Source: a virus. From it: 64,000 bases of DNA. The notes under the pieces were generated by a model. That model was not told the DNA's origin and did not search any database. It was given only the letters and a program-made list of their open reading frames with translations. The stretch spans positions 91,418-155,417 of the IMG/VR virus record IMGVR_UViG_3300037391_000010; one strand, given 5' to 3'. Shown one piece after another: positions 15,806 to 41,304 of this stretch; within the stretch, counting starts at the first letter, position 1, and each line of letters starts with the position of its first letter. A program made the translations under genes and the position numbers.

Positions 15806-17350
15806 ACTCAATGCCATTCAAAACCTTCACGCTGCGTGCGTATGTGGTCGATGACCATTACGACGAACCTCGCAAGCGAATGAGCCTCGAAGCCGCCTTT
15901 CGTGCGTGGCTGAAAAACCAGAAGTTCAAGATCGAGACAATCGAAGTCGTCGAAGTTCAGCGGGGTATGAAATGACGATGCGGTTAGTCAGGATTGAGAA
16001 CATGGATGAAGTGCTCGTCACCTTCACCGATGAGGACGGCAGGGAAGGACTCAAGATCGTCCATCCCACGGAGCTTCATGGCTACACGCTCACCCCGCCA
16101 GAGCCGCTTGACCCCAAGGTCATCAAGCGAGTGGAGGAGTGGGAGAAGGAGTGCGGGCCGTTACCTAAGCCGCCCGCTGGCATGTTCCCATGGCGAGAAC
16201 CCGTGGTTGTCGAGACCCCTAAGCGGTCTGGTGTCGAAGTGGATGAAAGGGGATTCTACCTCATCGACGGACTGTATGTGCCAGACACGGAGGCGGGTCG
16301 CCTGAGGCTCCAGTATGCACTGATGAACGAGAGGATGAACCATGAGAACGAAAGTATTCAAGGTCGAAGTGCTGATTGTGAACCACGACAACCTGACGAT
16401 GAACGAGATCGCGGAAACTCTTGAGAACGCGAACTACCCCAACGACTGCATCAACCCTCAGGTCATGGAGATCACGTCCCGCGAGGTCGAGTGGAGCGAC
16501 GAGCATCCGCTGAACAAGCACTCGACTCAAAAGGACGCCTACATCAAACTCTTCGGCTACCCAACCGTCTAACCCCCAGAAAACACGGGGCTAAAACCTA
16601 TAGTTCAGCCTCTATTTTTGGGTATAATAGGGGTATGATTCCCTGTTGCCAAATCTGCGGAAGCAAGCGCACGGCGGATGCCAAGCAGCCCAACCTCTGC
16701 TACTACATGTGCTACTGGCTGCTCGAAGGCTGGCTCGGTTGGAACGCCCGCACGAACAAAGTTGCCATCAGGGATCAACGTGCCCTCCCATTCGTACCAG
16801 ATGGACTCTCCTACCGTAAGGCCATCGCCAAGGCCCGCTCGCTCGGCTGGCGTGGCCGCGAAAATAAAATCGGAACCTTTTTGACTACCGCCGCGCATCC
16901 GTGGTAACATGGGGGCATGAGAACCTTCACACTGAACGATACGCAGGTAGAGCAATACTCCGCTTGGCAAGAGGAACACCGAAAGACTTGTAAGGTTGTG
17001 CCCGACTTCTCAGGCGCACATTGCAAGATCATCTTTGTCCCGAGTGGTCTCGGGGACAGCGCCACGGTTGAGTGCTTCTGCGGCGAGAAAAAGTATCTGG
17101 ACGACGGAGTGGAACTCTGATGACGAAGCTTCCTAGCAAAGAGTTCTGCGATAACGTCAGGGCGATGAGCGATGAAGACTTGCTGCGCCAGTACGATACC
17201 TATAACGCTCAGATGGACAGCCTCACAGCAGAACGCCAACGATGTTGGGATCGTTTCATGGAGATCAACGAGATTCAGGATGTGGTGGGCGGCGAATTCC
17301 AGATGGTGAGCATCGAAGCCCGTATGAACCGCAAGCTTAAAGTTTCTTAG
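15802..17350 (+). other. Small hypothetical CDSs (15802-15975, 15972-16424, 16342-16572, 16635-16907, 16917-17120, 17120-17350)
   Basis: Coupled ORFs; two start directly after -10-like motifs. Confidence 0.55.
16609..16637 (+). promoter_or_regulatory. Extended -10 promoter, probably leaderless
   Basis: CCTCTATTTTTGGGTATAATAGGGGT-ATG; near-identical to the element upstream of 63691 on the - strand. Confidence 0.7.
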
Positions 17351-17780
17351 CCATCGTCAGAGCGTGGTAGTGGAGTTTGTAGTAGTGGCGACGGAATGCA
17401 GTCACCCGATAGCCTAGCTTGAAGTACAACACCTGCGCCGGGTTCTCGACGCTGACCTCCAGCTTGATCTCAGTAAGGCCGCGCTTCTTTGCCGCCGCCT
17501 CGTACAAGCCAATGAGTTTAGTCGCTATGCCCTTGCCGCGTGCCTTGGAGGAAACGTCCACGGTGTCGATGTACCCCTTGCCGAATTCTTTATCCGCCAG
17601 CAGGAAGCCTAGTATCTTGTCGTTCTCTGCGGCGACCCAAACGTTGTTTTTCTTGGCGGCATCAAGGAGGGATTTATTGAAAACGGTTTGGCTCCAGAGA
17701 AAGGGTGCTTGGAAGCACCCCTTTTCTATTTCGTACAGGGAAGGAAGTTCTTCGGCATCGAGGCTATTGCGAAAGGTCAT
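17337..17780 (-). CDS. RimI-like GNAT N-acetyltransferase
   Basis: 'YIDTVDVSSKARGKGIATKL...IKLEVSVENPAQVLYFKLGY...RRHYY'. Confidence 0.88.
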   Translation of the reverse strand: MTFRNSLDAEELPSLYEIEKGCFQAPFLWSQTVFNKSLLDAAKKNNVWVAAENDKILGFLLADKEFGKGYIDTVDVSSKARGKGIATKLIGLYEAAAKKRGLTEIKLEVSVENPAQVLYFKLGYRVTAFRRHYYKLHYHALTMAKKL

Positions 17781-17804: not shown

Positions 17805-19067
17805 TTAGTCGAGGAAGATCGGCGTTGCCATCGTCTTCGAGTTGAACTTCTTGTTGATGAGGAAGAACGCCTGTGTGGGCTTCTCGAATGCAGCGCCGAT
17901 GTTGTTAGCGAAGGCGTTGTAACCAATCAAGCTGCCGTTTGTGACGAACGTTCCGCTGTCGATGTACTGGTGGAAGTGACCGAACAGGTCGAGATTCGGC
18001 GTCCGTGCATTGTTGATGTTCCAGTTGGCGATCTTTTTGTTGACGGGAATTGTGATACCGCCCACACCGCCGCCACTCTTGATGGCGTGGCCGTGATGAG
18101 TACGAAGGCGATAAGCCCCGCCGAAGAAGTCGTGCGTGCTGTGATAGCCGTCCGCAATGCACCATTCGATGCGGCGGGCGTACTTCGAGTCGCTATCCAG
18201 AATCATCTTCATTTCGCGGTACATCAAGCGTTCCCACGAGTTAGCGGGCTCGGTCTTCTGACGCTGTTTTGCCGTGCTGCGACCATGATTACCCGTGTGG
18301 CAAGCGATTTTGAGGAGTGTGTCTTTCTTGAGGTTATCGAGAGCGAACTTGATGCCGTTGATGAGGCGTTCCTGCACCCACCAGATCGCATCGCCCGGAC
18401 CAAGTTGGTTGCTTTCAGCCACGTCCTCGTGAATGGTGTTGGTGATAAAGTCACCCAGCAAGGCCAGAAAAACGACGGGGATGTTAGTGTCTTTCTGCAT
18501 GATGTCTGTCAGCCGCATCATGTTCTGCCAGTATTTCTCAATGCGCTTGTGGGCGACACCCAGATTGAACACGTTGCGACCTTCGATATCGTTGTAATCG
18601 ACCGTCTCTTCGACGTGCCAATCGCTTGCAGCCCACACTGCGACTGATTCGCTTGTGCCACTGACGACCTTCGGTAGGAATGAAAGGTGCTGTGGCGTTT
18701 TAGTGCGAAGGTCCTGCAATACAGCCAGCGTTTCCTCGGCGCGTTCGGCGCGGTGGATTGCTGCGTCGTACTTGGCTTTCAGATTGGTCTTGCGGTCGCG
18801 GACTTTCTCGATCTCAAGTTCGACTTGCTTGTCGGGTGATGGCTTTGCGATCTTGGAAACCACTTTTGCTTCGGCCAGAAATGCTTGGAAGGTCGGCCAG
18901 TAAAGATTCCATCCGTCCTTGAACTCGCTTTTGTTACGGAAAAAATCACGTGTGAGTTCGTCTGTTTGAGTTGCTAGGCGCTGGGCTTCAGCGATGAGGG
19001 TTTGCTTCGAAACTTTCTTTGAATCTTTTTTCTTAGCCAAGAATGTTTCCTCCGAGAAGAGACTCAT
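17805..19067 (-). CDS. Calcineurin-like metallophosphoesterase
   Basis: All five motifs present: SDWH, LGD, GNHGR, HGH, GHFH. Confidence 0.85.
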   Translation of the reverse strand: MSLFSEETFLAKKKDSKKVSKQTLIAEAQRLATQTDELTRDFFRNKSEFKDGWNLYWPTFQAFLAEAKVVSKIAKPSPDKQVELEIEKVRDRKTNLKAKYDAAIHRAERAEETLAVLQDLRTKTPQHLSFLPKVVSGTSESVAVWAASDWHVEETVDYNDIEGRNVFNLGVAHKRIEKYWQNMMRLTDIMQKDTNIPVVFLALLGDFITNTIHEDVAESNQLGPGDAIWWVQERLINGIKFALDNLKKDTLLKIACHTGNHGRSTAKQRQKTEPANSWERLMYREMKMILDSDSKYARRIEWCIADGYHSTHDFFGGAYRLRTHHGHAIKSGGGVGGITIPVNKKIANWNINNARTPNLDLFGHFHQYIDSGTFVTNGSLIGYNAFANNIGAAFEKPTQAFFLINKKFNSKTMATPIFLD

Positions 19068-19328
19068 CTAAAGCAACACATAGTTGCTAAAGTGGCCTCT
19101 TATCAAACGTAGCGCCAGCGCCAGTGGGATGAGATGGCCTGCCGCGTTTTGGGTGCAGTCTCCCACATTTTGTTAATACCAGTTCTGACTGACAATTTGC
19201 GCGGAAATATTTATTGATAGCCAATGATCGGCGAAACTCCCCGATTTCGGTATCTTCTAGTGAGGGCTGCCGCAGGGTGCGGGTAACCCATCGGACCCCT
19301 CCAAAACCACAGAAAATAGGGCATTTTC

Positions 19329-20825
19329 GTGAAAATCGTCATCGCCGACAAGCTACCACAGGAACACTCTACCGAATTCAGGGGGCTCCCTGTTATAATT
19401 GAATGGCCGAAGGGAAGCACCCGTGTGGGTAAGAACCCTGACGGTACGACGTTCAAAACAGAGATGAAAGTCGATTATGGCTACATCCCCGACACGACGG
19501 CGGCTGGGGACAAGGAAAAGCTCGACATCTACGTCGGGACCAATGAAGATGCGGAATATGCCTACATTGTTGAGCAATTGGACGACAAGGGCGAATTCGA
19601 CGAGTACAAAGTGATGCTGGGATTCGACACGCTGGAAGCTGCGGAAGAGGCGTACATTGGGCAGGCGGGTGAGGACCTGCTGGGCGACATCTCCGAGGTT
19701 GATTTCGAGTACCTGTTCGACACGGTGAAAGAGAAACAGAAGGAAGCCGCTGCTAAGAAAGAAGCCAAGTTCGCCGTTGGTGAGAAATACACAGTAATTG
19801 AAGCCTTTTTGAAGAACTACAAGCACGAGGTGGACTTCTACGATGAAGTCGCGCACCTCGTACAGGACAAGTTGGATCAGGCTCTTCAGGACGCGGGAAT
19901 CAAGGCGGTGGTTAGCTCCCGTGCGAAAACCCCAGATCGGCTGAGGAAGAAGCTGTACAAGCGGAACCAAAAAAGAAACTACAAGACGTTCCGCGACATC
20001 GACGACGACATCATCGATTTAGCTGGCTGCCGCGTGGCTCTGTACATGCCCGCCGACCGCGATGCGGTTGGAAAGCTCATTGAAAAGTTATTCGTTCCCG
20101 TGCGACCCCCAAAGAGCTTCCCCGAAGCCAGCAAGCCCGAAGAAGGCGATACGCTGGGTTACACGGCGACTCACTATCTTGTGCGCCTGCGCCCCGAAAC
20201 GCTTCGTAAGAAGGAGCTTCGGTACGCCGACACTCAGATCGAGATTCAGGTAGCATCCGTCCTGATGCACGCTTGGGCTGAAGTGACCCATGACTTGCTT
20301 TACAAGCCTGAAAAGGGTGAACTGACACCCGAAGAAAAAGCAGCCCTGAGCAATCTGAATAGGTTGGTGCAGGAGGGAGAACGGGAACTTGAAAAGCTTC
20401 AGTTCGCCATCGAAGGCCGCACGGATACAAGCCTTCGGTTTGAAATCGCAGCAGCTTTGGCGACGAGTCTCAAAGCCCGGTCGATGGGAAAGACTGCCTC
20501 CCTGACCGTAGGCGACATTGAGAAGGCCGTTAGAGCTATTGTTGGAAGCAAGACATCACTGTGGTCGATTTACTTGAAAGCCACGGAGACGCTCAGGAAA
20601 GCTCGTTGGGAAAGGCCCGACGAGGAGAAATACCGCAAGGCATGGGAATCCGCTGGATATGCGAAACCCGAGGAATCGCCCGCGAGTGAAACACATTACA
20701 TTCGCGAGGCCATGGAGAAGCTCGCCCCGGGTAAGCCAGTTAGTACGTTGTGGGTTCTGCCGAATCGTAGTGAGATCATAGCTCTTGCTCAACAGTTGAA
20801 AGCCGAGGCAACAAAGGAAAAATAA
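19329..20825 (+). CDS. Inorganic pyrophosphatase-like domain fused to a RelA/SpoT-family (small alarmone synthetase-like) domain plus a C-terminal domain
   Basis: InPase: 'IEWPKGSTR...DYGYIP...D.EKLDIYVG...FDEYKVMLGF'. RelA/SpoT: RAK, DLAGCRV, GYTATHY, EIQV and HAWAEVTHDLLYK. Confidence 0.88.
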   Translation: MKIVIADKLPQEHSTEFRGLPVIIEWPKGSTRVGKNPDGTTFKTEMKVDYGYIPDTTAAGDKEKLDIYVGTNEDAEYAYIVEQLDDKGEFDEYKVMLGFDTLEAAEEAYIGQAGEDLLGDISEVDFEYLFDTVKEKQKEAAAKKEAKFAVGEKYTVIEAFLKNYKHEVDFYDEVAHLVQDKLDQALQDAGIKAVVSSRAKTPDRLRKKLYKRNQKRNYKTFRDIDDDIIDLAGCRVALYMPADRDAVGKLIEKLFVPVRPPKSFPEASKPEEGDTLGYTATHYLVRLRPETLRKKELRYADTQIEIQVASVLMHAWAEVTHDLLYKPEKGELTPEEKAALSNLNRLVQEGERELEKLQFAIEGRTDTSLRFEIAAALATSLKARSMGKTASLTVGDIEKAVRAIVGSKTSLWSIYLKATETLRKARWERPDEEKYRKAWESAGYAKPEESPASETHYIREAMEKLAPGKPVSTLWVLPNRSEIIALAQQLKAEATKEK

Positions 20826-20831
20826 GTCATC

Positions 20832-21374
20832 ATGGCAGTCGCACCCTTCACCCGCATTGTAGTCGATAAGAAGGAGGAGGCGAAGTTCCGCCGCCGAGCC
20901 CTGAATCATTACCCACTGGAATACATGGAAGCCCTGTGGGGCAAAGTACGTGGTGATATCCTCTACATTCATGCCTTTGTGAAGGTCGATCATAAGCCCG
21001 GAAAACGCACCCTTCGGTACGAGGATTACGAGATTGACGAGCATGAAGAGGATGCAGCCGAAATCGGGCTGACCTACCTTGGCACCATCCACACTCACCC
21101 AAACGCCGAAGATGCTCAATTTAGCGAGGTTGACTGTGAACAATCGCAGGACTCTCAGGACGTAATGATGGGCATCTGTGCCATCCAAACTACCTATCTT
21201 GATGAGGAAACCAAGACTCAAAAGCCCCTGAACCGCAAGGTCGTCCGCGTCGAATACTGGCCGACCGTAACCCCACTCATCGCCATTCGTCGCGACACAC
21301 CACCCTCAAGGTCGGTCAAACGAGCCCTCAAAAGGGGCTATAAACTGGCGAAAAAGAAGAAGTCCCGTCGATAA
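20832..21374 (+). CDS. JAB/MPN+ metalloprotease
   Basis: N-terminal Glu (PLEYME) and 'LGTIHTHP...FSEVD' HxH...SxxD motif. Confidence 0.8.
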   Translation: MAVAPFTRIVVDKKEEAKFRRRALNHYPLEYMEALWGKVRGDILYIHAFVKVDHKPGKRTLRYEDYEIDEHEEDAAEIGLTYLGTIHTHPNAEDAQFSEVDCEQSQDSQDVMMGICAIQTTYLDEETKTQKPLNRKVVRVEYWPTVTPLIAIRRDTPPSRSVKRALKRGYKLAKKKKSRR

Positions 21375-21392: not shown

Positions 21393-24300
21393 ATGGGCGC
21401 TAGAATGAATCCATTGCTTCAAATGAAGACCGCCGCGTTCTCCTCGGTACGGGAAATCAATATCTCGGAAGATCAGGGCTCCGCAGAAGGGTACACAGCG
21501 GACACCAGTGCGGAACAACTCCAGAATTGGCTCGACCGCTTCGGCTACACGAACGAGGAATTCGTTGCCGACCTGCGGAAGAAATACGATAGCTTCGCCG
21601 TATTGAATAACATCAATGTGTACGAAGATTCCCGTGGCAAGGGCTACGGCGATTACCTGCTTCAGGAATTCCTGCGAGAAGCTGGGGATCATGGTGCGGG
21701 TATCTGCCTGCTGGTCGCCGACACTGCCGAGGAACAGGCCAAGGGTTTCAGCTTGGTGGAGTGGTACGAACGTAACGACTTCGAGCAGATTGCCTCGGTC
21801 TACGGCGGGGAACTGATGATATTGGGCATCATGAATCCGAAGATTGTGGCAAAGAAAGCAGCCGCCGACATCGGTCAGATGAAGAACATTGTTGCCGAGA
21901 TGATGAGCGTACTCACCGCTGGGCTACCACAGCCCGAAGTCAAGATCATAAACCAGACCAATAGAACGTTGGGGCAATGCCGTTGGCTTTGGGGCAAGAA
22001 AGCCGATCAGACTTGGGGCGATGACAATACCACGTTGGAAATTCAGAAGAAAGTTCTGGGGCACGAGGAGACCCTCCGTCGCGTCATCGCCCACGAACTG
22101 TGTCACCATGAAGTTGCTTTGCTCGTTGCTAAACCAAAGCTTCTGGAGATCGGCTACGAAACCTACAAACGGTATCAGAACATTTTCGGGCCTGATGGAC
22201 ACGGCAAGGAATGGAAGGAAGTCGCCAAGCGTTTCGATGCAAAATACGGTGCGGACTTTGTGACAGAGAAATCCGATAAGGACACCGTAGTGGACGAACA
22301 AGGCAAAGAAATCTTCATCCTGCTCAATAACTATGTCTACGGTCGGCACAAGCAGCGTTTGGGCTGGCAGTGGGCAGTGGGGCTTAGCCGTCAGGCTATG
22401 GCGTACCTCGATGGGATTGATTGGACTTCAGGCGAATTCAAACTGGTCAAGACGACTGATGCTGTATTCACCAAGGGGCGAGGCCGAATCAAGCAGTACA
22501 CAGGATGGAATTTGCCGCGCACCCCTGAACAGGAACAGAAGCTTCAAGACCTCTGGGCGAATGCTCCGATGGCGAAGTTCGGTGCCGACGAAGACAAGAC
22601 TGCCAAGTCAGGCCCGCACAAGAATGCGACATCCCAGATCAACCTGCCGCCCGAAGCCGCCGCTGGGATGATGGAAGCCGCGAAGCAAATTCCCGATGAG
22701 GAACTCGGCAAGGATGGTCGCGAGGATGACCCACACATCACAGTTAAGTACGGAGTAAAGCCCGATCCCGATTTGTTGAGTCAAGTTGTAGGTGAACAGC
22801 AACCATTTACGGTAACGCTGGGCAAGACGCACGTATTTTCCGTGAGCGAAAGTTCCGACGCTCAAGCTCCTATCGTGGTTCAATGCCATGCTCCCGAACT
22901 TGAGGCTCTCCACAACAAGGTCGCGGAAGCGATTGGCACTCGCAAGGATGATTTCCCCTACGTGCCACATGTAACTCTCGCTTATGTCAAGCCCGACGTT
23001 GCCGCCAAATATGAAGGAATGGACTGGGCTGAGGGCATCTCCTTCCAAGTAGACGCCATCACCCTGAGTACGAAGGGCGGCGGTCAGGTTCGAGTGCCAT
23101 TTGGCAAGCCTCGTAAGTCCGCATCCCACAAAACCCCACCGATGAGCGACACGCAGTACCAGAACCCTGAGATGGGTGAGGAGACGAACGCTTACGCAGA
23201 CATTCCAGAGCGTGTGAAGGGTGTCGAAGACCTGCCTTCGCTCGAATCGCTTTCGCCTGACCTATTCAAGACGGGAGCGGGCAGCGTTCACGATCTCGAT
23301 TTACAGGACGTGGTTGCTTGGGGCGGCAGCCTCAGTGAGGCACAGGGCGATTGGAACAAGATCAGGGCAGAGGCCGCTGAACGTGTGAAGGCTGAAGGCA
23401 AGGATTGGGAGAAAATGCCCGAGGCTGAACAGGAAGTGTGGCTCGACAAGATTGGCTGGGAGTGGCTCGGGGCGACATGGGAAGTCACCATGAACCGCCT
23501 CCAATCTCTGAAGTTCCCTCTCGTAGTCTACCGTGGGCTGGGCTCCGTCAGCCTCAAGGAGATCAACAAGGGGCAATACAAAGAGAAGGGCACGGGCATC
23601 TATTGGTCTTATGATGAGAACAACGCTTACGTGCATGAGGAACTCGCCGCTGGGCATTCGCACATCATAATGTTGCGAGGCGTCGTGAGTTCACCAAAGC
23701 AGATCGATTGGATTCGTACCGCTTATGTCAACCTCGTGGCATCGGATGAGAAGGAAATCAACATCTGGCCGGGTGAAGAGGTTCAGATCACGGGCTACAA
23801 GTACAAGGGTGAGAAGGCGTGGAAGAATCCACCGAAGAATCTCCGTCAAGTACGTGCCGCCGCCACGAACTTCAAGCCCATGCTGTTCGACAACTGGTGT
23901 GACGCGAACCCGATGTACCAGCCTGACGATTTCAACGAGGCCGAATACCGTTACGATGAGAATGTCGCCCACTTCAGCACTGTGGATTTCCCCATCACGA
24001 TCTACCGTGCGGTTCAAGTTGAGCAAGGCACGCAGCCGAACTTGGAGAAGGCTGGCATCTATTGGACGTGGGTTGAGAACAGTGCTGATGCGTACTTTGG
24101 TTCGGGGTCGATATGGGATCAAGGCGGGCCGCATCCGAAGAACCCTCAAACCTTAATTCTAAAAGCCAAGGTGTTGCGTTCGACCGATGTGGATTGGGAC
24201 GCGACTCTTCTCGCCAACATGCTCAACGAAGACGAGAACGAGATCACTGTTGAGGCAGGTGCCCAGCTTCAATTGATTGGTATCGATTACGGGCAAGGCT

Positions 24301-27300
24301 ATAAGAAGCCCGCTCAGAAAAGGGTCATGGCATACGGCGACGAATCCAAGAACCTGCCTTTACGTGGACAGAAAGGTGTGGGCGGACAGGACTTTCCTCT
24401 GATGTTCGACCCGCCGTTGTTCTCGGATGAGAAGGAAGCCGCAGGCAGACCGAAGTTCTACCACGGCACGGCAGCGGAGAACCTCGACGACATCCTAAAG
24501 AACGGGCTCAAAGCCAGCAAGGATATGAGCAGCAACGAGTGGGGTCGGTCTGTGTACCTCGCCTGCGATGCATACACGGCAAAGAACTACGAGGGGCATC
24601 AAGGCAAGGGTCGCGGCAACTGGGTCATATTGGAGATCGACGGCAATAAGCTCCATGAAGACCTGCTTCGTCCCGACGATTACGATTTCCGCGACATCTT
24701 CGAGAGCTTGCCCGAGGAAGAGAAGGCAAAATGCGAGGGCAACTGGGCGTGGTGCGATTGGCGAATAAGCCTTGAGCACAGTTGTCAAGTGGCGTACATG
24801 GGCGATGTCCCGCCTGACGCCATTAAGGTCGTTCCAACGCCGAAGTTCAGCGCAAAGATCAATCCCAAGTTAAAAGCATGGTTCAACGGTTCGAAGGTTG
24901 TGGACGACAAAGGACAGCCACGCATTGTGTACCACGGCAGCAAATCCACGTGGATCAGTTCCTTCGATCTGGGTATGGAAGGCACAGGCACGGCAGGCAG
25001 CACAAAGTGGGGCGGCATTTGGTTCACATCGAACCAAGGAAACGCCAGTTGGTTCGCCGATCCGCCCGAGGAAAAGGTTGAAGCACGCACTGATGACGTG
25101 ACGGTCTACGGTAATGACCCGTATTATGCCGCCATCACCGACATTAACGGCGAAGGCATTTTCGAAGTTGGCCCGCATCCTACAGAAGAGGAAGCGGAGC
25201 GAGACGGCATTGCACAGGCGAAAATGTACAACGAGCATCTGGGTGAGGACACCAACGTCCAAGCCGTCTACCTGAAGATCGTCAACCCGTATGTCACCGA
25301 TCAGATTCCGCGTGACAAGGAATTCAAAGCCGCTCGGGATGGCGGACACGACGGGATCATCGCCAAAGAGGTAACGGATGGTGTGGAGGTTAGCGATGTG
25401 TTTGTCGTGTTCAGTCCGAATCAGGTCAAGTCCGCTACCCGCAATGTCGGGAACTATGACCCGAACAACCAAAGCATTATAGCGGGTGGGTCAACCCAGT
25501 TGTTGCCCGACGAAGTGGAGCTAGTTGCAGACATCGCTCAAAGCGGCGGCGGGAAGGCATTCCCGAAGCTGGAGAAAGAGCCATTGTTCCCCGAGGATAA
25601 AGAGAAAACTGCCAGTGCCACACCAGAAATCAAGGAAGAAGCAAACAGTCTCCGATTAGAAGTTGGGGGGCAGAAGATTGGCTATATCGGTTATCGCGTG
25701 GATCAAGTCGGCAAGAAGAAGTTTGCCGAAATCTCCGGTCTCGAAGTGGACAAGGCATGGCGTAGACAGGGGTGGGGAACAAAGCTGTACGAAGCTCTTG
25801 CCGCAAAAGCGAAACGCGAAGGCATCTCGTTCCTGACCTCCAACCTCAGCGGTATGACCTCTTCTGACGCAGAGGGTGTGTGGTCTCACCTTATTGGTAA
25901 AGGGTACAACATTGAGGAGGTTGCATCCGAGGATTCGGAGACGGGCAAGCCGTATTTCAAGTGGAAAGTCGCCAAGCAGTACGGCCCCGTCTATCACGGC
26001 ACCTATCACGAATGGTCTGACAAAATCCAGAATGACAAATACAAGATCGGAAAGTTTTTCAGTTCAGACCCGCTTGTGGCACAGGCATACGGCAGCTTCG
26101 TGCATGAATGTTATCTGACGATGAACAAACCATTCATCGTGGACGCGAAGGGAGAAAGTTACTCCTCAATCCCCACGCCCGAAGCGTTGAAGCGTTGGGT
26201 TGCCTCTGGAATGGATACGGTCGATACTGACAACATTGCTGATTACGCCTCCAAACATGGGTACGATGGCGTCATCATTAAAAACGTTGTTGAGCTTCAC
26301 CACCAAGTCGAGGCGGACGACTACATCGTGTTTAAGCCCAATCAGATTAAGGTGAAGGGCGTCATTGAGCCTGAGATCAGTCCTTACACTGCCAACAAAT
26401 ACCATAAGCAAGAGTTGCAGCGTCGTTTTGAAAAGAAATACCCCCAGACGGCAAGCTCGCACACGGCGGCGGGACTCCCGTCATTCAATGCGTGGGTGAA
26501 GAAGAACGGCGGCATCGCCAAGATTCTCGACATGTACGACGTTGACACAGCGGAGACTTACGGTTCCGGGTTGGAAGAGCCCGAGAATCAAGCTGACGTT
26601 AAACGTTACGAGAAAGAACTACACAAGCGTGCCTTGGCGGACTTTCAAGAGCGATACGAGCATTTTATCGCGGAGTACCAAAGCTGGCAATTCCCGATGG
26701 ATGTGTTCCGTTGCATCTCTTTGCCAAAGCCTGACAGCAACGCAGGACAGCAGCACTTGTTCCCCGATACTCCGCAGGCACAGTTCCAGCAAGGATTGCA
26801 GGCGATAAAGTACAACGGCGTCGGCATCTTCTGGTCGTGGGATGAAAACTCCGCAGAATGCCATTGGGGTTCTGGCGGGCCGAACGTGACGCTGCACGGC
26901 ATAATCAACAAAGACAACGTTGATTGGGAAGGCACGCTTTACGCCAACATGTTTCCCGCATTGGGCGACGACGAAAAAGAAGTCCGTCTGATAGAGGGTA
27001 CACAATTTGAGCTTGAGGGAATCCAATACGACGAGAAGTCGGGATGGTCGCAGCCCCCAGTGAAGACGGTTACGGCAGCGAAGGCCAAGAAGCGTGTGTT
27101 CTACCATGCGACGAGTGCCGCGAACATCAATGGCATTGCACAGCACGGGTTGAAGCCTTCGGAGAAGACGAACTGGGGTGGTATGCTGGGAGATAGCTCC
27201 CTTGGCAAGACGTTTTTTGCAAAAACACCCGCCTCGGCGATGTACTACGCCATGATTATCTTCCGCGACAAGCTGGAGGATAACGGTCAAGCACATGTCC

Positions 27301-30300
27301 CGATCTGCCTTCGTGTGACCATACCTGAGAAGGTTCAGTTGGACACGGAGCGGGCCCAGAATGTGCAGAGGGGAGTCCATTTACCAGAAAGTGAAGCCTA
27401 TGCTCCCGATGAGGAATCGTGGGTCACGGAGGGGATTCCGCCTGCGAACATTCAGATGTTCTGGCAGGGTAAGTGGCAGCCAGTCAAATCGGGCGATTGG
27501 GATTCCATGTTCTATTATGAAGAGGGAGAGGGCGTTGGGTACGTGGACTGGGAAGGCTCCCCCGTTGGAGATTCCGTTCCTGAAGCTATGGCTGACGTTG
27601 AGAGCTTCACGATGCCGAAGAAAGCAGGCGTGATGGGTCAGGTATACCTCCTGCACTTCGATATCGATCCGAAGGAAGAGATTCCTAGCACCCGCGAGGA
27701 CGCTAAGAAGCCGTTCCACGCTCGTCACTATATGGGCTGGGCCGAGAACGCACAGGAGCGCATCGACCAGCACTACAAGGCAACCTCAGGCGTCAAGCTG
27801 ATCGAAGCCATCCATGCCAAGGGTATTTCGTTCACCGTCGCCCGAATTTGGGATAACGTGGATCGGGACTTTGAGCGTAGGATGAAGAATCAGGGCGGAT
27901 TGAACCGTCACTGTCCTATTTGCAAGAAGCTGGGGCTCATCCCCGCGTCTCGCTATCGCGGCAAGGCATTGGAGAAGCAAGTGGCACCAGCAACACCTGA
28001 AGCAGGGCTAGATTTCGTGGAGATAGAGAAGAAGGCCGCAGCGGGTGATCTCGCCAATCTGCGGAACTACCTCACTCTGAGCCGCCGCGAGATGGGCGAG
28101 GAGTTAGCTCGGAATTTCAGCAGCTATTGGTCAGAGTTCGTAGAGAATGAGCATCCCGAGCTTGCCAATCTTATCGACGAAGATGGCTACACTGACAATT
28201 TTGACACTGTTCCCGAGGATGTATTGAGCGACTTCCTCGACCAGTACGGCAGTCGGGCACTACAGGATGACCCCGCTATGGCTCCCACGTTCCTGACTGT
28301 GGACTATCGTCGCGATGTCAAGAACGCTTGGCTCGTGCATTTCACCGACTTCCCCGATGAGATTGCCAAGAGTGGTTTCAAGTACGGCATGGATCGGGTG
28401 GAAACGCTCGCTCTAACGACCTACTTCAAGGAGGACGCGAAGAAGTTCGGTGGGTATAACTTTGCCCTCGACGCCCATCACCGCAACCTTGAATCTCTCG
28501 GGAGCAACTACGGCAAGCATTGCGTTCTGTTCCAAGCGAACGGTATTGAGACGTGGCATACAGGCGATGACTTTGAACAGATCATTTTCTGGGGTAAGGA
28601 CGCGAGGAACATCATTCCGATCTACGACAGCGGCGGGTATGGTACGTGGTCAGTCGGTGAGGACAAAGACGGTAACCCGCTGTTTGAGAGTGAAGACCTG
28701 TCGCAGGTTGTGGAGTGGGCAATTACGAACTCCGCGAAGTTGTTACCCAAAGCCAAGAAGCCGAAAGCTCAGCGTGCAGTCGCCAGTGAGATGACAACGT
28801 TATACCACCGTACTCGCCCGGGCCGTGAGGGACAGATTGACACGCAAGGATTGAGCCATATCGAAGGCGGCGGTGAACTTTGGTTTACTGATGATCCGTC
28901 TGCTTATTATGGGGACTCGCCAAACGCAATGTATAGCGTTGAGGTTCCTAAAGAAGAAGCCGAGGCCGCACACGTGGGTGGACACGATTACCGTTTCATG
29001 GGCCGTTCATTCGCCCCCGAACAAATCAAGAAGGTCGGTGCGGAGCCATGGGAAATGCGACAAGATGAATACGCGGGTCGCTGGAACGAGCAAGAGACAG
29101 AGGAGCAGAGCGGTGTGCGTCACCAGAAGAACCAAGATTGGGAACAGAATTCCCTAGCCGCCCTGTCGCTCGGTAAGATCACACCAGAACAGGCGAAGGA
29201 ACGCGGTGTGTACGAAGCGAAATCATTCATACCCCTGCCTCAGACCCCGTTGTATCACGTCACAACCGCCAAGAGTCAAGTCGAAGCGAATGGTCTCAAG
29301 ACTCGTCGTGAACTCGGTCAAAATTACGGCAAGGGGTTGGGCGGCGGCACCAGCATGAGCATCAGCTTCACTGATGATATGAGCATCGCACAGGGCATTT
29401 ACGATAACCTGCTGATCGCTCGTAAGGTTGCCGCAGGCGAGATGACCTTGGACGATCTGATTAGCACTGCCACTAAGGGCATGGGTGCGAACCGTCCGTG
29501 GATCGACGACATTCTCAAGTCGCTGGGCGGCTCCAACCCGAAGGACAAGATCAACGTGGAACTGGATGCCATACAACGTGGTGTGGCGTTCGAACACGGG
29601 CTGGGTCGTCCACCCGATGACGAAGCGATTCTGCCGCAGTACCGCAAGCCCGGGCCGTGGCGTCCTACTCCTTGGAGCCAACATTGGAAGGGCGGCGATG
29701 GAGAAGAGAAGTACACGTACTGGGAACGCGACCTCACTCCTGAGGAAAAGCAGGAACGTGTGTTTGAGTTCTTCAAGAAGTGGAGCTTCTGGCGTGAGCA
29801 AGCGGGCGGGGGACTTGATCCGCTGTACTTCATGAGTGATCCAAAAGCTTTGGGTCAGACACCCGAGAGTGAGATCACCATCCTGACATTCAAGGCTGTG
29901 CCCGGAGCAATGGGCACTCGTGAATCGGCATTGGGTGAATGGCGTGTGTACACGGGTGCGGCTGTGCAGCTTACGGGTAACGCGGCGGCGGCAAAGATGG
30001 GGATGTTTAATCCCAACCGAGCTAACGTTCAGTACAATTCCGAGAAGGGTACAGGCGAGTGGGAAGGCTGGAACATCGATTTCAGCGCCGATCCAGTCAA
30101 GGAGCACATGCTGCCCGCATCGTTCGTTCGGAAGCTGAAAGGAATTGAGCAGAAGTTCATCAACGTCGCCGATGTAGTGGAGACACAGAGCGAGCACTGG
30201 ACAAAATCCGAACGTGTGGATGAGATTCACACACAGATGGAAACCGAGAAATGGTTCGAAGCCATTCTCGTAGACGAGTACGAAGATCAGCAAGGGAAAT

Positions 30301-33300
30301 ATTACTTGGAAGAGGGGCATCACCGCACCCGTGTAGCAAAGAAGATGGGCAAAACGACTATTCCAGCCGTGATTATGAAGCTGGAACCTCGTAAACCTCA
30401 CTGGTCGTTATCGTCAGGTATCGTCAGAAAATCGTCAGATATCGCCAAGTTTGCGTTCCTCATCGAAGTTCCGAAGGAGTCACGCGGCCATTTCTGGGAT
30501 GAGCCGCCCGCCCACAATCTGGAGTTCTGGGCCTTCCGAAGCCGTCCTCCTGTCCTGATGAACGAGAAGGTCTACTTCACGTTCGACAAGATGCCCGTGG
30601 CGGAAACTACCTGCCTGAAGATTGAGAAACCCGGCGAGTCGCTGTGTGAACTGAGCGGCAAGTACGAGGATCACTGGAAGCTCTACTGGGAACCGAAGCA
30701 GTTCGTCAAATACGCTGGAGCCACAGTTACGTTGTACCATGGCACTTGCCCTGAAAATGCAACCGCACTCGTTGAAAAGGGATGGCAGCCGAATCAAGTG
30801 AGCAGTGGGGCGAATCGTGGTCAGTCGAAGTATTTGTACCTGACAAATATGACGGACAACGCTCGCTGGTTTGCTCAAGAACATGGGTGCGACACGCTAA
30901 TCGAAGTTCGCAATATCCCTCTGAGCTACATCGCACTCGACCCTGAGGACGCTACTCAGGACACGGTGGAGGCTGAGCTTGACTATAACGGCACGGGATT
31001 GCCCGGCACGGTTGTCCTCACACAGCCGTTGGGGGCGGAACATTTCCACGTGCTCCATGGTAAAGTCGGTAGCTTGAATGAGAAACGAAATGAAAAGTGG
31101 ATTTACCACCCCGATTACGGTGCGTTCTCACAGAAGGGAAGCATAGGTCCTCATGCGACGTTGATAGCGAGAACCATGGGTGAGGGCATGGCCTCTGGGT
31201 GGAAGTACACTGAGGTACTACGAGGCTACGCAGTAATTGACGTGGATCAAAAAACCGTAACCTTGGCGACTCCCACGAAAGAGTTCATACCGAACGACGT
31301 AGTGGATTTGTTCAAGAAGAAATACCCCCAGTACGACCTATCGATTCCTGCGGAATCGAAAGCGGTTGGTGTGACCGCCGCCATGCCGAAGAAGTGGTAT
31401 CACGGCACGTCCCTGAAGAACGCTGAGAAAATCCTGAAGGACGGCTACCTCCAGCCAGATCAAGAGACGACCTACGACATTGACATCCCGCGTGACGGGG
31501 CGGTATACATCGCCGACTTCGATATTGCGGAGCAGTACGCTATCGAACGCAGCGGTGTGGTGTTGGAAGTTGCCGCCCCGGATATCAGCAAGCTCCTGCC
31601 CGATGAAGATGATGTTTACGAACTGCTCAACGACCGTGGTGGTGAACTAAACGCCAAGGGTTCTGCCCAAGCCAAGCGTGTGAAAGCTCTGTGGCTCAAG
31701 CAATGGAATGATGAGAACGCTTCCTACAATGAGCCCGAGAAGTTCCCGATCTATAAGAACTTCGAGGAAGCATGGAAGGCATGGGGCGAAATCGAGTTCG
31801 AGGGCTCAGCCGAACTTGCCGAGCAGATGAAGTATTTGACCGACTACATTGTCAAGAATGATCCCAAGCTCGCTCGTGCGATCATCGAACTGGCGGGTAA
31901 GGCTGCTCACATAGGGCCGCTCAAGGTTGTCCGTCAGGTCAAGACGGGTGCTCCGAAGTCCATCTGGTATCACGGCTCCAGCCTGAAGAACCTGCAAAGC
32001 ATCATGAGTCAGGGATTGGTTCCCGAAGGTAAGGAAAAGGTCTGGGGGGACGATCCTGACGCTGGGCTATCTGCACCGAGTCGTCAATCTTACGGCGGAA
32101 TCTACGTCACACAGAACCTCATGACGGCGACGGGAGCCCCCAATACCGAGGACAAGAAGGCTCGTGGCGGCGTACTGATTGTCGCCATGGAGCTTCAGCC
32201 GAACACGATGTACCTCGACGAGGACAACGTTACGGGAGTCTTAGGCGCTCCAATCAAGCACCTGAGTGACAACACCTTCCACGTTCTCTGTTATTATTTG
32301 GCGGCTACACAAGAAGGCGCTGCTGAGACTTGGCAACAAGAGATAGAAGGAATGCGTGCTGACTATATTCGCAAGTGCCTTACGCAATGGGAGAGCAAAT
32401 TTGCGGAGCGTAAGATACCGTTCCACCCCGAACTGAAAAAGGAACTTGAGAAGATTCTACCCAGTGTGTGGCTCGCGGGCGTAACACGAGCGGCAGGCCA
32501 TGTCAAGGACAACTACTCCTACATTCGGGCTTGGGATCAGGTCTTCTACGGCACTCCGAAGGAGAAGCAGCGTCCCGACGCGAACACCGTGCTGCCCGAC
32601 GCATCTGAGGGAGAGGCGGCGTTCCGCGAAGCGGCAGAGAAGGTCACCCGCACGCTGCGGCTCCTCGCTCGTCCCGCTGAAGAGTCTTCGAAGAATCAGA
32701 TTTACAACATGAACACCTCTCGCGTCAACGAGCCGATTGGTTTCAGCGGGTCGAATCACATCCTCGCCCTCATAGAAGTTCGAGATCGCCAGCAGCCTGC
32801 TCAGATGATCCTGCACTGGGGCACCATTCCGCCAGACTTCTTCACCCAGTGGAACATAAAGTTTGGCAGCAAGTACGAAGTGGTGGACGCCCGCAAGGGT
32901 CAGCCCAAGGCTAGGGGTGTGGCAGCCTCAGCTAAAACCGCCGATGATTACGCCGCCGATTACGATCAGGAAGTCTTCTACCACGCGACCACGTGGAAGA
33001 TCGCTGACTTGATCGACAAAGAAGGATTGAAGTCAAGCGACAATCAACTGACTCAGGGTAAGAAGTACATCTGGTGCTCTATCGATATGGCTGCGGCGAA
33101 AACTTACGGTCGGTACTTTAGCCAAGACGAGGATAACGAACAGTTTGCTGTGGTGGAATTCATCTGGAATTACGATAAGAGCGAGCCTGACCCGGAGCAC
33201 TTTGAAGAGGGCGACACGTACCGCCGCATCGAGTCCGACATTCCTCGGTCGGCAATCACCAAAATTTACTATTTCGCACACGATCAGGTTGTCAAGACGG

Positions 33301-36300
33301 CTGCGGTAGAGGATAAAATCAAGGTAACCACGGCTCCAGACGGACGAATTACGGCCAAACACGTCGATGGAAGTGCTTCAGGCACCGTGGAAGACCGTGA
33401 AGGACTGGCTAAGTGGTTTGATTGGAACACTTTACCACGTGGCGGGGCTGGAATTTACGACAAAGCCTTCGTTTTGGGCACTGTAACGGTCAAAGTCTCG
33501 TGCCGCCGTACAGGGCTCGGCAGGGCGCTTATAGGGGCTGTGCTCGACGCAGCGAAGGCTCAGGGTGCCCAAGTGTGCTTCCTGCTCGCCCATTCGCTCA
33601 CAGGGCTCTCCGCGAAGGAATTGAGTGCTTTCTACAGCAGCCTTGGGTTCCAACCATACGTCATCGACCCGCCGCCGCGATGGTTCGATTCCTCGACCGC
33701 TGGCATTTTCATGAAGAAGCTGGCAGGCGTGGCAAAGCTCGCCGCCATGAACCGCATCAGCCAGCAGGACGCCGTGGATCGCAAGATGTTCGGCCCTGTC
33801 TACCATGGCACCACCGAGGAGAAACAGGAGAACATCGGGAACGAGGGCTTCAAGGTCTACATCGGTGACGCGGGATCGGGCGACGTTGCTCACGGTTACG
33901 AAGGTAACCAACCCTATCATGACGGCATCCCTGCCCCCGTTCACCATCTGGGGTACGGCGTGTACTTCACGACCGCCAAGGCTATCGCCAAGCAGTTCGC
34001 GGGCGGCACCACGCGAGGTATGAAGACTTACTACCTCGACGTGCCACGGCTGGAGACCATCAACTTCGGAGTACCGAAGACCATGATGAAGTGGTGGGTG
34101 AGTCAGGGCTACGACGGGGCGCTCGCAAAGAAAGATCGCGTGGCAGCGACCAAGCAGATGACCGAGCACCTGAAGGCTCAGTTTGATGCCGTGTGGTTCA
34201 AGGGCAAGGGCATGTACAAGTTGCTCGATGGCGATCAGATTTGTGTGTTCGATTCGAGTCGCATCTATGAAGTCGATGCAGCTATGTCGAAGCCGGGTGA
34301 CATCGGCTCCAAGGTCATTCGTAAGGCCGATGGGATGAAGGGCGTCATCAAGAACATCCGTCCGATCCCGCCTGAAGTGGCACAGCAGTATCACGGTGGG
34401 GCGGACAAGTTCTACGAGATCAAGTGGACGAAGGGCGGCACCGACCACAACGTCTACGCCCGCGATATCGATTTCGTTGGGGCGAAGGCTCAGGGCGCTA
34501 CGGCGTCAATGAAGACCGCCGAAGGATTCAACGATGAGGGTTTCTGGGCAGGCGAAGGCAATGCCGCGTCTGGCGTTCTGCCAATCTGCACCACCACGGG
34601 CCGCATCTGTCTCGCATGGCGATCACCCGATGTCCATATCGGCAATTGCTGGGGCACCATCGGTGGGGCGGTCAAGCCGGAGATGAGCTTGTCAGAAAGT
34701 GCCAAGGCGGAACTGAAAGAAGAGACGGGGTTCGGCGGCGGTGTTACCATGATCCCCGCTTACGTGTTCAGCAGCGGGAGTTTCTCTTACCACAACTTCC
34801 TCGGAACCGTGGGCACGGAGTTCCGCTTCGCTCCGCAGAGCGAACATCACTGGGAGACCACTGGGCTCGAATGGTTCACATGGGATGAGATTCAGCAGAT
34901 GGTAAAGGAAAACTCCAGCGATTTCCACCCGGGCCTCATCAGCTTGTTCAAGAGCGACGGCAAGAAGATCGAACAGCTTCTCGGCAAGCCAAAGACAGCA
35001 GCGGGCGACGATGGGGATATGCCGAACATGCTTCAAGTCTTCCCCGAACGTCCCGATGTGATGGAGACTTTCCGCCACATGCGCCCATTCGAACGGGATC
35101 GATTGATCGAGGAAGCTCAAATCGAAGAGATACATCCCGCCGATCTGAAGACAAATCAGGCGACTCTTTCACGGAAAGACCTCCAGTATTTCTTGGACAA
35201 CCCCGAGGAGATCACCAAGCCGCACAGCAACGTCGGACTGAGCGACACGGAGCAGTTGTACCCGCTCGTGTGCCGCACCAGTGAAGGCGATTGGCTGTAC
35301 GATGGTAATCATCGTGCGAATGCCGCCATGAAGCTCGGCATCATGCTCAAGTGCAAGGTTGTAGACCTACGGGATTACGAGGAGCCACAAGGAAAGGTTT
35401 CCAGAAAGCTCGCCGCACGAGGCGAGGTTGGCCCTGTCTATCACGGCACCGACAAGAAGTTCGACAAGTTCGAGCAGAAACCCGGCACCCGATACATTCT
35501 CTTCTCCGAGATTAAGGTACAGGCTGGTGGGTTCTTCTTCACCGATGACCCTGAGGAGGCGAAGGAGTTCGGCTCGAACGTCATGACCTGCTACTTGAAG
35601 ATGAAGAAGCCACTGATTCGGCAAGAAGACCAGTATAACTTGAGCAAAAAGCAAATCGCCGACCTGACTTACATCTGCGAGCCATGCATGAGTGACGGCT
35701 ATTCCGACTTGCAAGGCAATTCCGTCAAGACGATTGAACTTGGAGCCTTTGCCATCGATGTAGACCCAGAAGGCAACTGGCTCAACGAGATTGTGAAGCA
35801 GAACGGGCTCGATTGGAACATCTTGGATAATCAAGAAGCCGTTAATCGCATGAAAGAGCGCGGCTACGACAGCACCATGGTGGATGAGTACAACGGCAAG
35901 TATAGCTATTGCGTGTTCTCGACCGACCAGATCAGGGTCAGTGGCGGCAAGACAGCCTCGGGTTGGAAGGACGAAGGCTTGCTCAACGAAAGCGACATGA
36001 AGAAGTGGAAACAATACTGGGACGGTCAGGGGCACAGTATCCAAGTTGACAAAGCCCACGGCGGGCTGTATCACTGCTGGATCAAGTTCGCAGCCGCCCC
36101 AGCCCGAGCATTGAAGCTCTACCATGTCACGACGGTGCCTATCGCCGAGGACATCAAGGCTCACGGCTTCAAGCCGGTCGATCAGGGTGTGTGGAAGAAC
36201 TATTACGCCCCGCAGGGACGCGACGGCATCTACTTTTACGACGATCTGAAATACTCCGAGGCTTACGCCGCCTACACCGAGGGTCAACTTTACACGCGCA

Positions 36301-40025: not shown

Positions 40026-41189
40026 TTACGCCCCTGCGCCCCCAGATGGTTTCCGCGTGGGAATTGGGATGATGGGTCTCACGTTGATGGGCTCACGCTG
40101 TGGAGCCGCCGCTGACCCGTAACGTTCGAGCAGCATGGGCACCATGGCGTTCTCGGATTCTTTCACAAACACGGTGGTTTCGCCGTCCATGTCCACCTTG
40201 ATGAAATCGCCCAGCTTGACCTGACCAGTGGCAACAAGGTTCGCCATCGGGAAGACCAAATTGCGTTCAATGGCACGCTTCAAGTGACGCGCACCGTACT
40301 TCGGGTCCGTGCCTTCCTTGAGCAAGAATGCCTTGACCGCTGACGTGCAGTTGAATACGAACTGGTTCGCACCAGCCGCCATCAACACGCGCTGTTGCAC
40401 CATACCAAGTTCGATCTCAAGGATCAATTCCAAATGCTCGGGGCGTAGAGTCTTGAACACGACCGACTTGTCGATGCGGTTCATGAACTCGGGGGTGAAC
40501 TTCCGCTTTGCGGCGTCAACCGCACTACGGTCGATCTTTGCGTCCAGCGAATCATCAACGGTGACGTTCTCGCGAGCGTTGCCGAAGCCCATACCACCGT
40601 TCATCAGTTCGCTCATGTCGGCGGCACCGAGGTTCGATGTCATAATGATAATGCACTGGCTCAGGTCAACGCGGCGGTTGTCGCCGAGGGTCAGAGTTGC
40701 CTTGTCGAGGATGCCGAGCAGGAGTTGCCACAGTGAGTCAGAAGCTTTTTCGATCTCGTCGAACAGAAGGATCGACAGCTTCAATTTCTCCGAATACCAT
40801 TGGTTCAAGGCTTCTTGTGTGAGTAGAGGGTGAGTTTCGCGGTGACCGAGGTAGCCCGGAGGGGAACCGATCAGCTTGGCGATTTCGTGGGAATGTTGGA
40901 ATTCAGCGCAGTCAATCTTGATGCAGGCTCGGGCGTCCCCGAAGAGGGATTCAGCCATCGCTTCTACTACACGGGTCTTGCCGCTTCCCGTGGGGCCGAG
41001 GAAGAGCAGGTTACCAACTGGACGACCCGGAGCATTCAGACCAGCCAAGAACATCTGATAAATTTCAACAACCTTCTCGACGGCGGCGTCTTGTCCAACG
41101 ATACGCTTACGCAGGGCCTTCTCGAAATCACGCGCATCGTTTGAACGCTTGGTAGGGTCTAACTTGAGTCCAGTGCCAGTACCTTTCAT
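40026..41189 (-). CDS. Stand-alone ClpA/ClpB D2-type AAA+ ATPase
   Basis: Walker A GPTGSGKT, pore loop GSPPGYLG, Walker B LLFDEIEKA, TSNLG, PEFMNRID, GARHLKRAI; no N-domain or D1 ring; AGGAG RBS. Confidence 0.93.
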   Translation of the reverse strand: MKGTGTGLKLDPTKRSNDARDFEKALRKRIVGQDAAVEKVVEIYQMFLAGLNAPGRPVGNLLFLGPTGSGKTRVVEAMAESLFGDARACIKIDCAEFQHSHEIAKLIGSPPGYLGHRETHPLLTQEALNQWYSEKLKLSILLFDEIEKASDSLWQLLLGILDKATLTLGDNRRVDLSQCIIIMTSNLGAADMSELMNGGMGFGNARENVTVDDSLDAKIDRSAVDAAKRKFTPEFMNRIDKSVVFKTLRPEHLELILEIELGMVQQRVLMAAGANQFVFNCTSAVKAFLLKEGTDPKYGARHLKRAIERNLVFPMANLVATGQVKLGDFIKVDMDGETTVFVKESENAMVPMLLERYGSAAAPQREPINVRPIIPIPTRKPSGGAGA

Positions 41190-41304
41190 GCCTACTCCTG
41201 TTCCGTATCCGAGTCCCACAAGTACCACCTTTCTAAGGTTTGAGAAGTGACTTTCCCCGTTCTGATAGGTGCCGACTCCCTTAAAATCTCACCAATACCG
41301 TGAA

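Follow-up and report, generated by a model that had tools for sequence, protein, structure and literature searches.

A phage-encoded fusion of pyrophosphatase and RelA/SpoT synthetase domains as a candidate capsid-delivered alarmone effector

RelA/SpoT-family alarmone synthetases are known from hosts, where they regulate stress, from toxin-antitoxin (TA) and secretion systems, where they are the toxins, and from anti-phage defence, where they are effectors. What use might a virus make of such an enzyme? The question is raised by an open reading frame (ORF) of 498 amino acids in the final 64 kb of IMG/VR record IMGVR_UViG_3300037391_000010, a linear record of 155,417 bp that is ~48% complete (CheckV); this stretch of 64,000 nucleotides is referred to below as the window. 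Because the record also encodes a tail sheath, a large terminase, a major head protein and a head maturation protease, it is recognized as a fragment of a jumbo myovirus, and the source phage is an uncultured jumbo myovirus of soil Acidobacteria. The ORF (19329..20825, + strand, GTG start, one open frame) joins an InPase domain, a RelA/SpoT synthetase domain and a helical C-terminal module, and shares the N-terminus MK(I/T)V(I/T)ADKLP with its homologues. Since the Lys-x-Ala joints of this three-part protein also flank the head protease of the phage, it is probably an effector that is injected and cut. Our full proposal, to which we assign a probability of roughly 0.45 on the basis of sequence and predicted structure, is that it would be a small, protease-jointed and capsid-delivered polyvalent effector making a (p)ppGpp-like alarmone.

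The domain structure is well defined. The InPase domain, a type I pyrophosphatase-like OB fold (19365..19712, + strand, residues 13-128), matches Pfam PF18823 with an E-value of 2.4e-31 (108.8 bits, cut-off 26.8), and the synthetase domain (19794..20420, + strand, residues ~156-364) was identified as a RelA/SpoT homologue of the small-alarmone-synthetase (SAS) fold with Pfam, Foldseek and VIA. In an AlphaFold2 model of the whole protein, built on 59 homologues, the predicted local distance difference test score (pLDDT) exceeds 90 for residues 13-125 and 156-362. The only short inter-domain dips lie at residues 148-153 and 387-389, and both coincide with linker motifs. An initial annotation of this DNA had placed an InPase module at 19329-~19730 and linker motifs AKFAV and GKTAS at nucleotides 19764 and 20487; the Pfam match confirms the module, and the motifs start at just these positions, with K147-V150 and K388-S391 as their cores.

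The synthetase domain is apparently active, to judge from its residues, and of the small-alarmone-synthetase type. It matches PF04607 (RelA_SpoT) over residues 197-328 (E-value 2.8e-11, 44.1 bits, cut-off 27) and scores 47 bits in a genome-wide search. In an alignment of 59 sequences with 44-93% identity to the 498-residue protein, R198, K200, K208 and R212 of Syn1, D230, G233 and R235 of Syn2, Y278 and H282 of the G-loop, and E305 and Q307 of Syn4 are invariant in 59/59. D230 is the Mg-binding Asp of Syn2, the domain was also aligned to 2be3 and 3l9d, and mutation of the Tyr equivalent to Y278 abolishes the toxicity of toxSAS enzymes (PMC7229694). Syn4 reads EIQVAS and not the EIQIRT of the RelQ type, with A309 and S310 likewise invariant in 59/59, making it a family-specific variant outside the canonical pattern E-[IV]-Q-[IV]-R-T. 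The statement in the initial annotation that all four Syn motifs are present therefore stands for the catalytic Glu and Gln of Syn4, and fails for its Arg-Thr.

Structural comparison places the domain nearest the housekeeping enzymes of the SAS group: the best neighbours are RelQ (VIA Z 18.4, root-mean-square deviation 2.6 over 182 residues), RelP (Z 17.9) and SAS2 (Z 16.8), followed at lower scores by long Rel (13.9), CapRel (11.8), an exported SAS (11.5), Tas1 (10.2) and FaRel (7.5). Foldseek gave TM-scores of up to 0.82, and a profile search of PDB sequences returned only RelQ/RelP-type chains. The earlier framing of the protein as toxSAS-like is thus not borne out, since the RelQ/RelP fold (Z 18) is nearer than CapRel, Tas1 or FaRel and the locus has no TA gene pair.

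The acceptor is harder to read. Signatures for guanosine and adenosine 3'-pyrophosphokinases have been given as AVR/SxH/IR and RYT/GxN/YH, respectively (PMC12226406). The corresponding sites here are G-C-R (G-V-R in the family), A-x-H (A-T-H) and V-A, so that the synthetase is guanosine-like by its residues at Syn2 and Syn3, two of the three sites, and unlike either type at Syn4. These signatures give a weak pointer to a guanosine acceptor; they are a weak guide because swapping Syn motifs failed to convert specificity, according to the same paper. Sequence alone did not decide between G, A and tRNA as the acceptor.

The pyrophosphatase, too, is apparently active, as far as residue conservation can tell. 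The acidic cluster D61/E63/D66/D91/E92 and the residues K94, R32 and Y50 are conserved in the 59-sequence alignment, where D61 is found in 52 sequences, E63 in 51 (with Asp in 7 more), D66 in 58, D91 in 54, E92 in 58 and K94 in 58. VIA gives Z ~6 against type I pyrophosphatases, and a further match is to portal gp19 (9b41), in its C-terminal part; elsewhere, portal and minor head proteins carry fused InPase domains. A syntenic InPase protein occurs in Tunturi_5, a cultured 309-kb Acidobacteria myovirus (Tunturiibacter phage; PP885688; PMC11924767). Because that protein bears GP88 instead of a synthetase, InPase is the constant module and its fusion partner varies.

The linker motifs may link the protein to the phage head. 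Linker 1 contains K147-F-A-V150 (19767..19778, + strand), which lies at the end of a long acidic and Lys-rich helix, in the pLDDT dip at 148-153, and is a candidate protease site; K388-T-A-S391 (20490..20501, + strand), in the dip at 387-389, is a weaker one. In the family alignment linker 1 is hypervariable and acidic, with insertions and deletions, and the island K-[VITLFM]-A is conserved inside it. A K-x-[AG] motif stands no more than 16 residues from the start of the synthetase in 68/88 members, the rest having mostly V/L-T-A-[AD]. The ORF has the same linker motif as its giant neighbour (described below), and a Lys-x-Ala-small joint also brackets the head protease; within the family the motif is well kept at linker 1 (68/88) and much less so at the KTAS joint (34/80).

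The distribution of the motif in the record is uneven. The neighbouring 5484-residue ORF contains K-[TVIFLM]-[AG]-[ASG] 18 times, against 4.5 ± 2.2 in shuffled sequences (maximum 11 in 500 shuffles), at a density of 3.3 per 1000 residues compared with 0.86 in other proteins. Over the whole record, head-module and giant ORFs together, a grouping picked after the data had been inspected, hold 59 motifs versus 19.5 ± 4.1 in shuffles (about threefold), and all other ORFs hold 17 versus 23.6 ± 4.6.

The head maturation protease (G000 C1:27942-28898; phrog_18299, E-value 2e-14, residues 58-263) is flanked by GHKSASG at residue 51 and AKIASG at residue 290. A K-x-A-[SA] motif is kept on both flanks in ~40 distinct IMG/VR homologues (59-97% identity) despite surrounding insertions and deletions, in forms that include FCKTAS, FWKTAS, FAKAAS and FAMTAS. 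Prohead proteases that process themselves, T4 gp21 and phiKZ gp175 among them, are bracketed by their own cleavage motif. Because such self-bracketing is typical of these enzymes, the Lys-x-Ala motif is best read, from the sequences at hand, as the recognition site of the head protease. The two ORFs next to the protease gene have no family match and bear the motif as well: one of 554 residues, a possible portal (C1:26305-27969; L003:7305-8969), has DDKVAAS near its C-terminus, and one of 731 residues (C1:28898-31093; L003:9898-12093) has five K-x-A copies. Both are likely to be further protease substrates or scaffold-like proteins.

Gene order ties the protein to a much larger one. Six nucleotides downstream of it lies a Prok-JAB metallopeptidase-like ORF (20832..21374, + strand, 180 residues), and 18 nucleotides after that gene starts the polyvalent ORF of 5484 residues (21393..37847, + strand), which has the same linker motif. 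Its domains comprise a SprT-like zincin (residues 172-283), 2H/LigT, many ART/PARP modules, GNAT, NUDIX and ParB_N. In all 7 homologue loci examined, the InPase-synthetase gene directly precedes a large 2H/ART-PolyVal/GNAT/NUDIX protein, which opens with a 2H phosphoesterase followed by ART-PolyVal, GNAT or NUDIX. The slot between the two is occupied by an optional JAB, SprT-like or unlabelled small gene. The boundaries of the large ORFs vary among phages (for example 1444 + 1262 + 3659 residues versus 5484), which fits one functional array divided differently by stop codons. The description of the ORF as a small polyprotein of the same system is therefore supported by comparison, both by the operon shared with the 5484-residue ORF and its synteny in 7/7 loci and by the ART, GNAT and unlabelled domains that relatives carry inserted at the linkers.

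The phage has several candidates for a processing peptidase: the SprT-like zincin, the adjacent JAB protein, and the head protease with the same flanking motif. The JAB ORF has an intact-looking JAMM-type motif (E...HTHx8SxxD), and the same gene is present at P0018, at P0102 and in Tunturi_5 (gp271); its product may be a peptidase that serves processing or a deconjugase that counters host defence. Weak PADLOC matches of this ORF to Cap3-like JAB models were also recorded.

More than 100 metagenomic clusters (at the 90% identity level), on contigs of up to 455-894 kb, pair InPase with RelA_SpoT, and the full fusion was found in no cultured phage searched. Searches of phages with tblastn gave no PhRel-, PhRel2- or CapRel-type match above 31% identity. 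Relatives of 613, 677, 745, 834 and 1422 residues carry GNAT-like, ART or unlabelled modules inserted exactly at the two linkers. P0003 (613 residues) has a GNAT-like module between InPase and synthetase; P0040 (677) has unassigned modules after KVAA and after GKTAAG; and P0100 (834) has ART and GNAT before the synthetase core and ART after it, with a repeated joint QKEDQK[YH]GS. Among the longer proteins with a synthetase module, in a search limited to 2490 residues, P0121 (1422) is the sole polyprotein bearing InPase, the other matches being RelA/SpoT-domain proteins of ~1000 residues without InPase, two of them labelled as bacterial metagenome-assembled genomes. In P0092-P0094 (~374 residues) the synthetase is nested in an InPase loop, so that two InPase stretches flank RelA_SpoT in Pfam, with a KKAS motif at the distal InPase/synthetase junction. 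The two domains thus stand in tandem, in tandem with inserts, or with the synthetase set inside InPase, which makes three topologies in the family. With unrelated effector domains (InPase, RelA_SpoT and the third module) in one phage polypeptide, and a mosaic, quickly shuffled architecture among orthologues, the 498-residue protein belongs to the known kind of polyvalent proteins and is not a new category.

Outside this set, P0110 and P0119 (~415 residues) have an EIQVAS synthetase without InPase and a C-terminal end with a HEPN-like RNxLVH motif (R-N-x-L-V-H-G). P0110 (L009:6001-7257) lies on a 283-kb contig in a non-phage context, adjoining a TPR-CHAT protease and an S41 peptidase. Relatives of the P0110 type may represent a cellular source or a defence use of the EIQVAS synthetase clade.

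On our preferred reading, the 498-residue protein would be made together with the giant polyprotein and loaded into the prohead; the head protease would cut it at K147-F-A and, less certainly, at K388-T-A; and the pieces would be ejected with the phage DNA. In the newly infected cell the freed synthetase would use ATP to pyrophosphorylate a purine nucleotide, most likely a guanosine nucleotide, at its 3'-OH, giving (p)ppGpp or a close analogue, and the host would be thrown at once into a stringent-like state. The pyrophosphatase would act as a separate cargo enzyme, clearing pyrophosphate or a nucleotide diphosphate. We infer each of packaging, cleavage, ejection, acceptor identity and host effect. 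A more specific version is possible, if on balance doubtful: the protein would be a capsid-stored pro-enzyme accompanying three or four giant polyproteins, all cut by a head protease whose Lys-x-Ala specificity would be new to the literature, with the unusual EIQVAS synthetase, of (p)ppGpp type, being injected along with the DNA and the pyrophosphatase editing its product or the nucleotide pool.

Several observations weigh against capsid delivery of an alarmone synthetase. The strict motif of linker 2 is present in 34/80 members, mostly as KTAS, many clades having QSKG[KRL]A there instead; in the nested P0092-P0094 forms a cut at KKAS would split the pyrophosphatase. The protease itself had no Pfam or PDB sequence match, its identity coming from one PHROG match (phrog_18299) and the GenBank annotation of its Tunturi_5 homologue, and the enrichment of the motif was calculated for the post hoc grouping noted above. 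The capsid protein has KTAG/KLAA in its N-terminus, which adds no support, because the entire N-terminus is invariant in 46 distinct homologues and the motif is therefore uninformative. As to the product, the Ala-Ser in Syn4 could mean an acceptor unlike those of all enzymes characterised to date. Finally, the gene lies ~75 kb from the head module, among exonuclease, GNAT and ligase genes, and at this distance, among genes of DNA and RNA metabolism, neither late expression nor a place of its product in the virion is a given. In the 498-residue protein, no signal for targeting or cleavage was visible at the N-terminus.

The position of the gene among replication and repair genes, distant from the head module, and the lack of a visible targeting signal are also what would be expected of an uncleaved, unpackaged multi-enzyme that stays in the cytoplasm and acts jointly on the host or phage nucleotide pool. 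Lys-x-Ala would then reflect linker composition, or a site for the JAB protein or the SprT-like zincin; a JAB or SprT-like gene lies right downstream in 4/8 loci (JAB in the window's own locus, P0018 and P0102, SprT in P0034), JAB precedes the InPase gene in Tunturi_5, and the nested InPase[RSH] forms argue that both enzymes work in one chain. Against this, the motif forms a conserved island within a hypervariable linker, composition hardly explains why it brackets the head protease in ~40 homologues and Tunturi_5, its enrichment is confined to head-module and giant ORFs, and InPase is elsewhere appended to portal and minor head proteins. We regard a cytoplasmic multi-enzyme as rather unlikely. 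A quite improbable alternative is that the synthetase makes no alarmone and is a toxSAS-like, translation-targeting pyrophosphokinase of the tRNA CCA end. Among the phage- and conflict-associated RelA/SpoT homologues characterised to date, tRNA pyrophosphokinases and (pp)pApp synthetases form the majority (PMC7229694); strand alternation would turn the Arg that Syn4 has lost towards the active site, and its loss could suit an acceptor without 5'-polyphosphates; there is a weak PADLOC match to the defence candidate PDC-S33; and the 2H phosphoesterase of the operon and an RNA ligase in the window both work on RNA ends. Against this, the RelQ/RelP fold is clearly nearer (Z 18) than CapRel (11.8) or FaRel (7.5), the PDB profile search gave RelQ/RelP-type enzymes only, and Syn2 and Syn3 are of the guanosine type. 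No antitoxin, small alarmone hydrolase (SAH) or CapRel-like C-terminal zinc-finger-like domain was found, and the neighbours are not those of a toxSAS operon: an exonuclease-like gene on the opposite strand and the JAB gene, with the downstream gene varying among loci. This agrees with the remark in the initial annotation that no obvious antitoxin is adjacent, as no small cognate gene adjoins the ORF and the 155-kb record yielded no HD-type hydrolase.

The canonical RelA/SpoT reaction releases AMP and not pyrophosphate. A pyrophosphate-clearing role for InPase is therefore not obvious, which makes it attractive to picture a coupled two-step machine, in which a nucleotide, a signalling nucleotide or an RNA end would receive a 3'-diphosphate from the synthetase and InPase would trim this, or another diphosphate, the former to a 3'-monophosphate. 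The outcome would be a product that host hydrolases of the SpoT/SAH type could not reverse, or an inactivated host immune signal. The pairing of the two domains in >100 clusters and three topologies speaks for such coupling, and Iyer et al. propose that InPase may act on nucleotide-like substrates (PMC5512222). Yet the syntenic InPase of Tunturi_5 bears GP88 and not a synthetase; the many polyvalent, portal and minor-head contexts of InPase indicate a general cargo module that is not specific to the synthetase; and cutting at the joints would separate the two enzymes. Coupling is, in our estimate, the least probable of these explanations.

The third module, all-helical (20502..20822, + strand, residues 392-498), is listed without a name in the initial annotation. 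It is real and conserved among close relatives, and neither a family nor a fold matched it. A domain-only model shows six helices (pLDDT 76). No Pfam or PHROG family matched it, and the 155-kb record contains no paralogue. The fold search gave a best Z of 4.8 (VIA, PDB representatives) and Foldseek E-values of at least 2 against BFVD; phmmer against 1.8 billion representatives gave 3 matches, of which P0138 (4261 residues) was rejected as a spurious sum over a repeat protein and the others are family members. The module is lost or replaced in some relatives, and absent from P0038, P0047 and P0095-P0108. Possible roles include regulation or inhibition by the tail, as CapRel shows, targeting, or simply service as extra cargo.

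Upstream of the operon lies a divergent intergenic region of 261 nucleotides (19068..19328), the presumed promoter region, which separates it from an exonuclease/Metallophos-like gene (17805..19067, - strand, 420 residues, phrog_284). A k-mer comparison found no promoter motif shared between the operon and other genes, and sigma-70 and terminator scans upstream of the operon stayed at chance level. The exonuclease-like gene is the usual left neighbour, in 5/7 homologue loci and in Tunturi_5, genes with helix-turn-helix domains standing there instead at P0094 and P0102. Beyond it lies a stand-alone GNAT gene (17337-17780, - strand), as also in the P0082 locus. A search of the 155-kb record, roughly half of the genome, gave no HD_4 alarmone hydrolase, and the NUDIX module of the 5484-residue ORF is, by our inference, the only obvious candidate for degrading alarmone products. 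Further along the window are an AAA+ ATP-dependent-protease-like ORF (40026-41228, - strand), an RNA ligase with an N-terminal HNH-like region (45029-46057, - strand, phrog_24030) and a DNA-ligase-like ORF (53056-53853, - strand). These ORFs indicate that the phage carries RNA-end repair functions beside the 2H and synthetase modules.

If the preferred reading of a capsid-delivered effector is true, a conserved and catalytically intact synthetase in an entire clade of soil jumbo phages would let the virus itself set the host stringent response, the reverse of the known roles of these enzymes; in the version with a capsid-stored pro-enzyme, the phage would trigger a stringent-like response within seconds of infecting the cell. 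An uncharacterised product may lie behind the invariant EIQVAS and the obligatory pairing with a pyrophosphatase. With 498 residues and two sites, the protein offers a small, tractable substrate for the Lys-x-Ala cleavage code of the larger polyproteins, and Tunturi_5 is a cultured laboratory model for packaging and cleavage. In the literature text that was searched, a widespread, dedicated InPase-synthetase gene heading an operon and an invariant EIQVAS do not seem to have been described, nor do the nested topology and a K-x-A code shared with the head protease.

Comparison with known systems places the protein closest to the phage-type polyvalent proteins. InPase and RelA/SpoT are both listed among the phage-type polyvalent domains by Iyer et al. 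(2017; PMC5512222), who proposed packaging and proteolytic release. Such proteins combine several unrelated effector enzymes per polypeptide, as does the ORF described here, and the giant neighbour with its SprT-like zincin, 2H, ART-PolyVal, GNAT and NUDIX domains also conforms. Unlike the proteins described there, the present one has only 498 residues and three modules and is encoded by a separate gene heading an operon, and its candidate processor is the head protease acting at K-x-A, not only the MPTase proposed there. A direct InPase-RelA/SpoT fusion is not described in the text of Iyer et al. (PMC5512222), figures aside.

Among the synthetases, RelQ/SAS1 and RelP/SAS2 (PDB 5dec, 6ewz, 6fgk, 2be3) are the best structural matches (~180-194 aligned residues), and share the catalytic Asp/Glu, the basic residues of Syn1, the G-loop Tyr/His, and guanosine-type Syn2 and Syn3. 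The protein differs from them in its low identity (18-21%), in having EIQVAS and not EIQIRT, in its fusion to InPase and a helical tail, and in being phage-encoded in an effector operon. With the toxSAS enzymes (FaRel, FaRel2, PhRel, PhRel2 and CapRel; Jimmy et al. 2020, PMC7229694), in which RelA/SpoT synthetase domains act as weapons between phage and host, it has the synthetase domain in common, and CapRelSJ46 (PMC9712102) too has a C-terminal extension, there a regulatory one, in the same chain. Unlike toxSAS, the 498-residue protein has no bicistronic antitoxin or SAH, its structural match to these enzymes is lower, and a lytic-type jumbo phage carries it as presumed offensive cargo and not as host defence; unlike CapRel, its C-terminal module is all-helical and does not match the CapRel antitoxin domain. 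MuF toxins with Apk2 adenosine 3'-pyrophosphokinase (PMC12226406) resemble it as presumed virion-delivered, RelA/SpoT-type pyrophosphokinases on a head-internal module. Here, in contrast, the carrier is InPase with no MuF match, no IapK/Aph1 immunity-like genes are adjacent, and the motifs are A-x-H rather than GxN and VA rather than YH. The protein thus fits the definition of neither a toxSAS toxin-antitoxin module nor a MuF/Apk2 toxin.

The closest cultured counterpart is the syntenic gp271-gp273 locus of Tunturi_5, which contains an exonuclease gene on the opposite strand, a JAB gene, an InPase fusion and a NUDIX/ART-PolyVal/GNAT polyvalent protein. The JAB gene precedes the InPase gene there, whereas it follows it here. 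The InPase of gp272 (L173:5926-7263) is 57% identical, and is fused through an EKTAAP linker to PF17338 (GP88) and not to a synthetase. The Tunturi_5 head protease, gp331 (L174:401-1264), is 62% identical to that of the present phage, and carries KTAA and KVAS at the same flanks.

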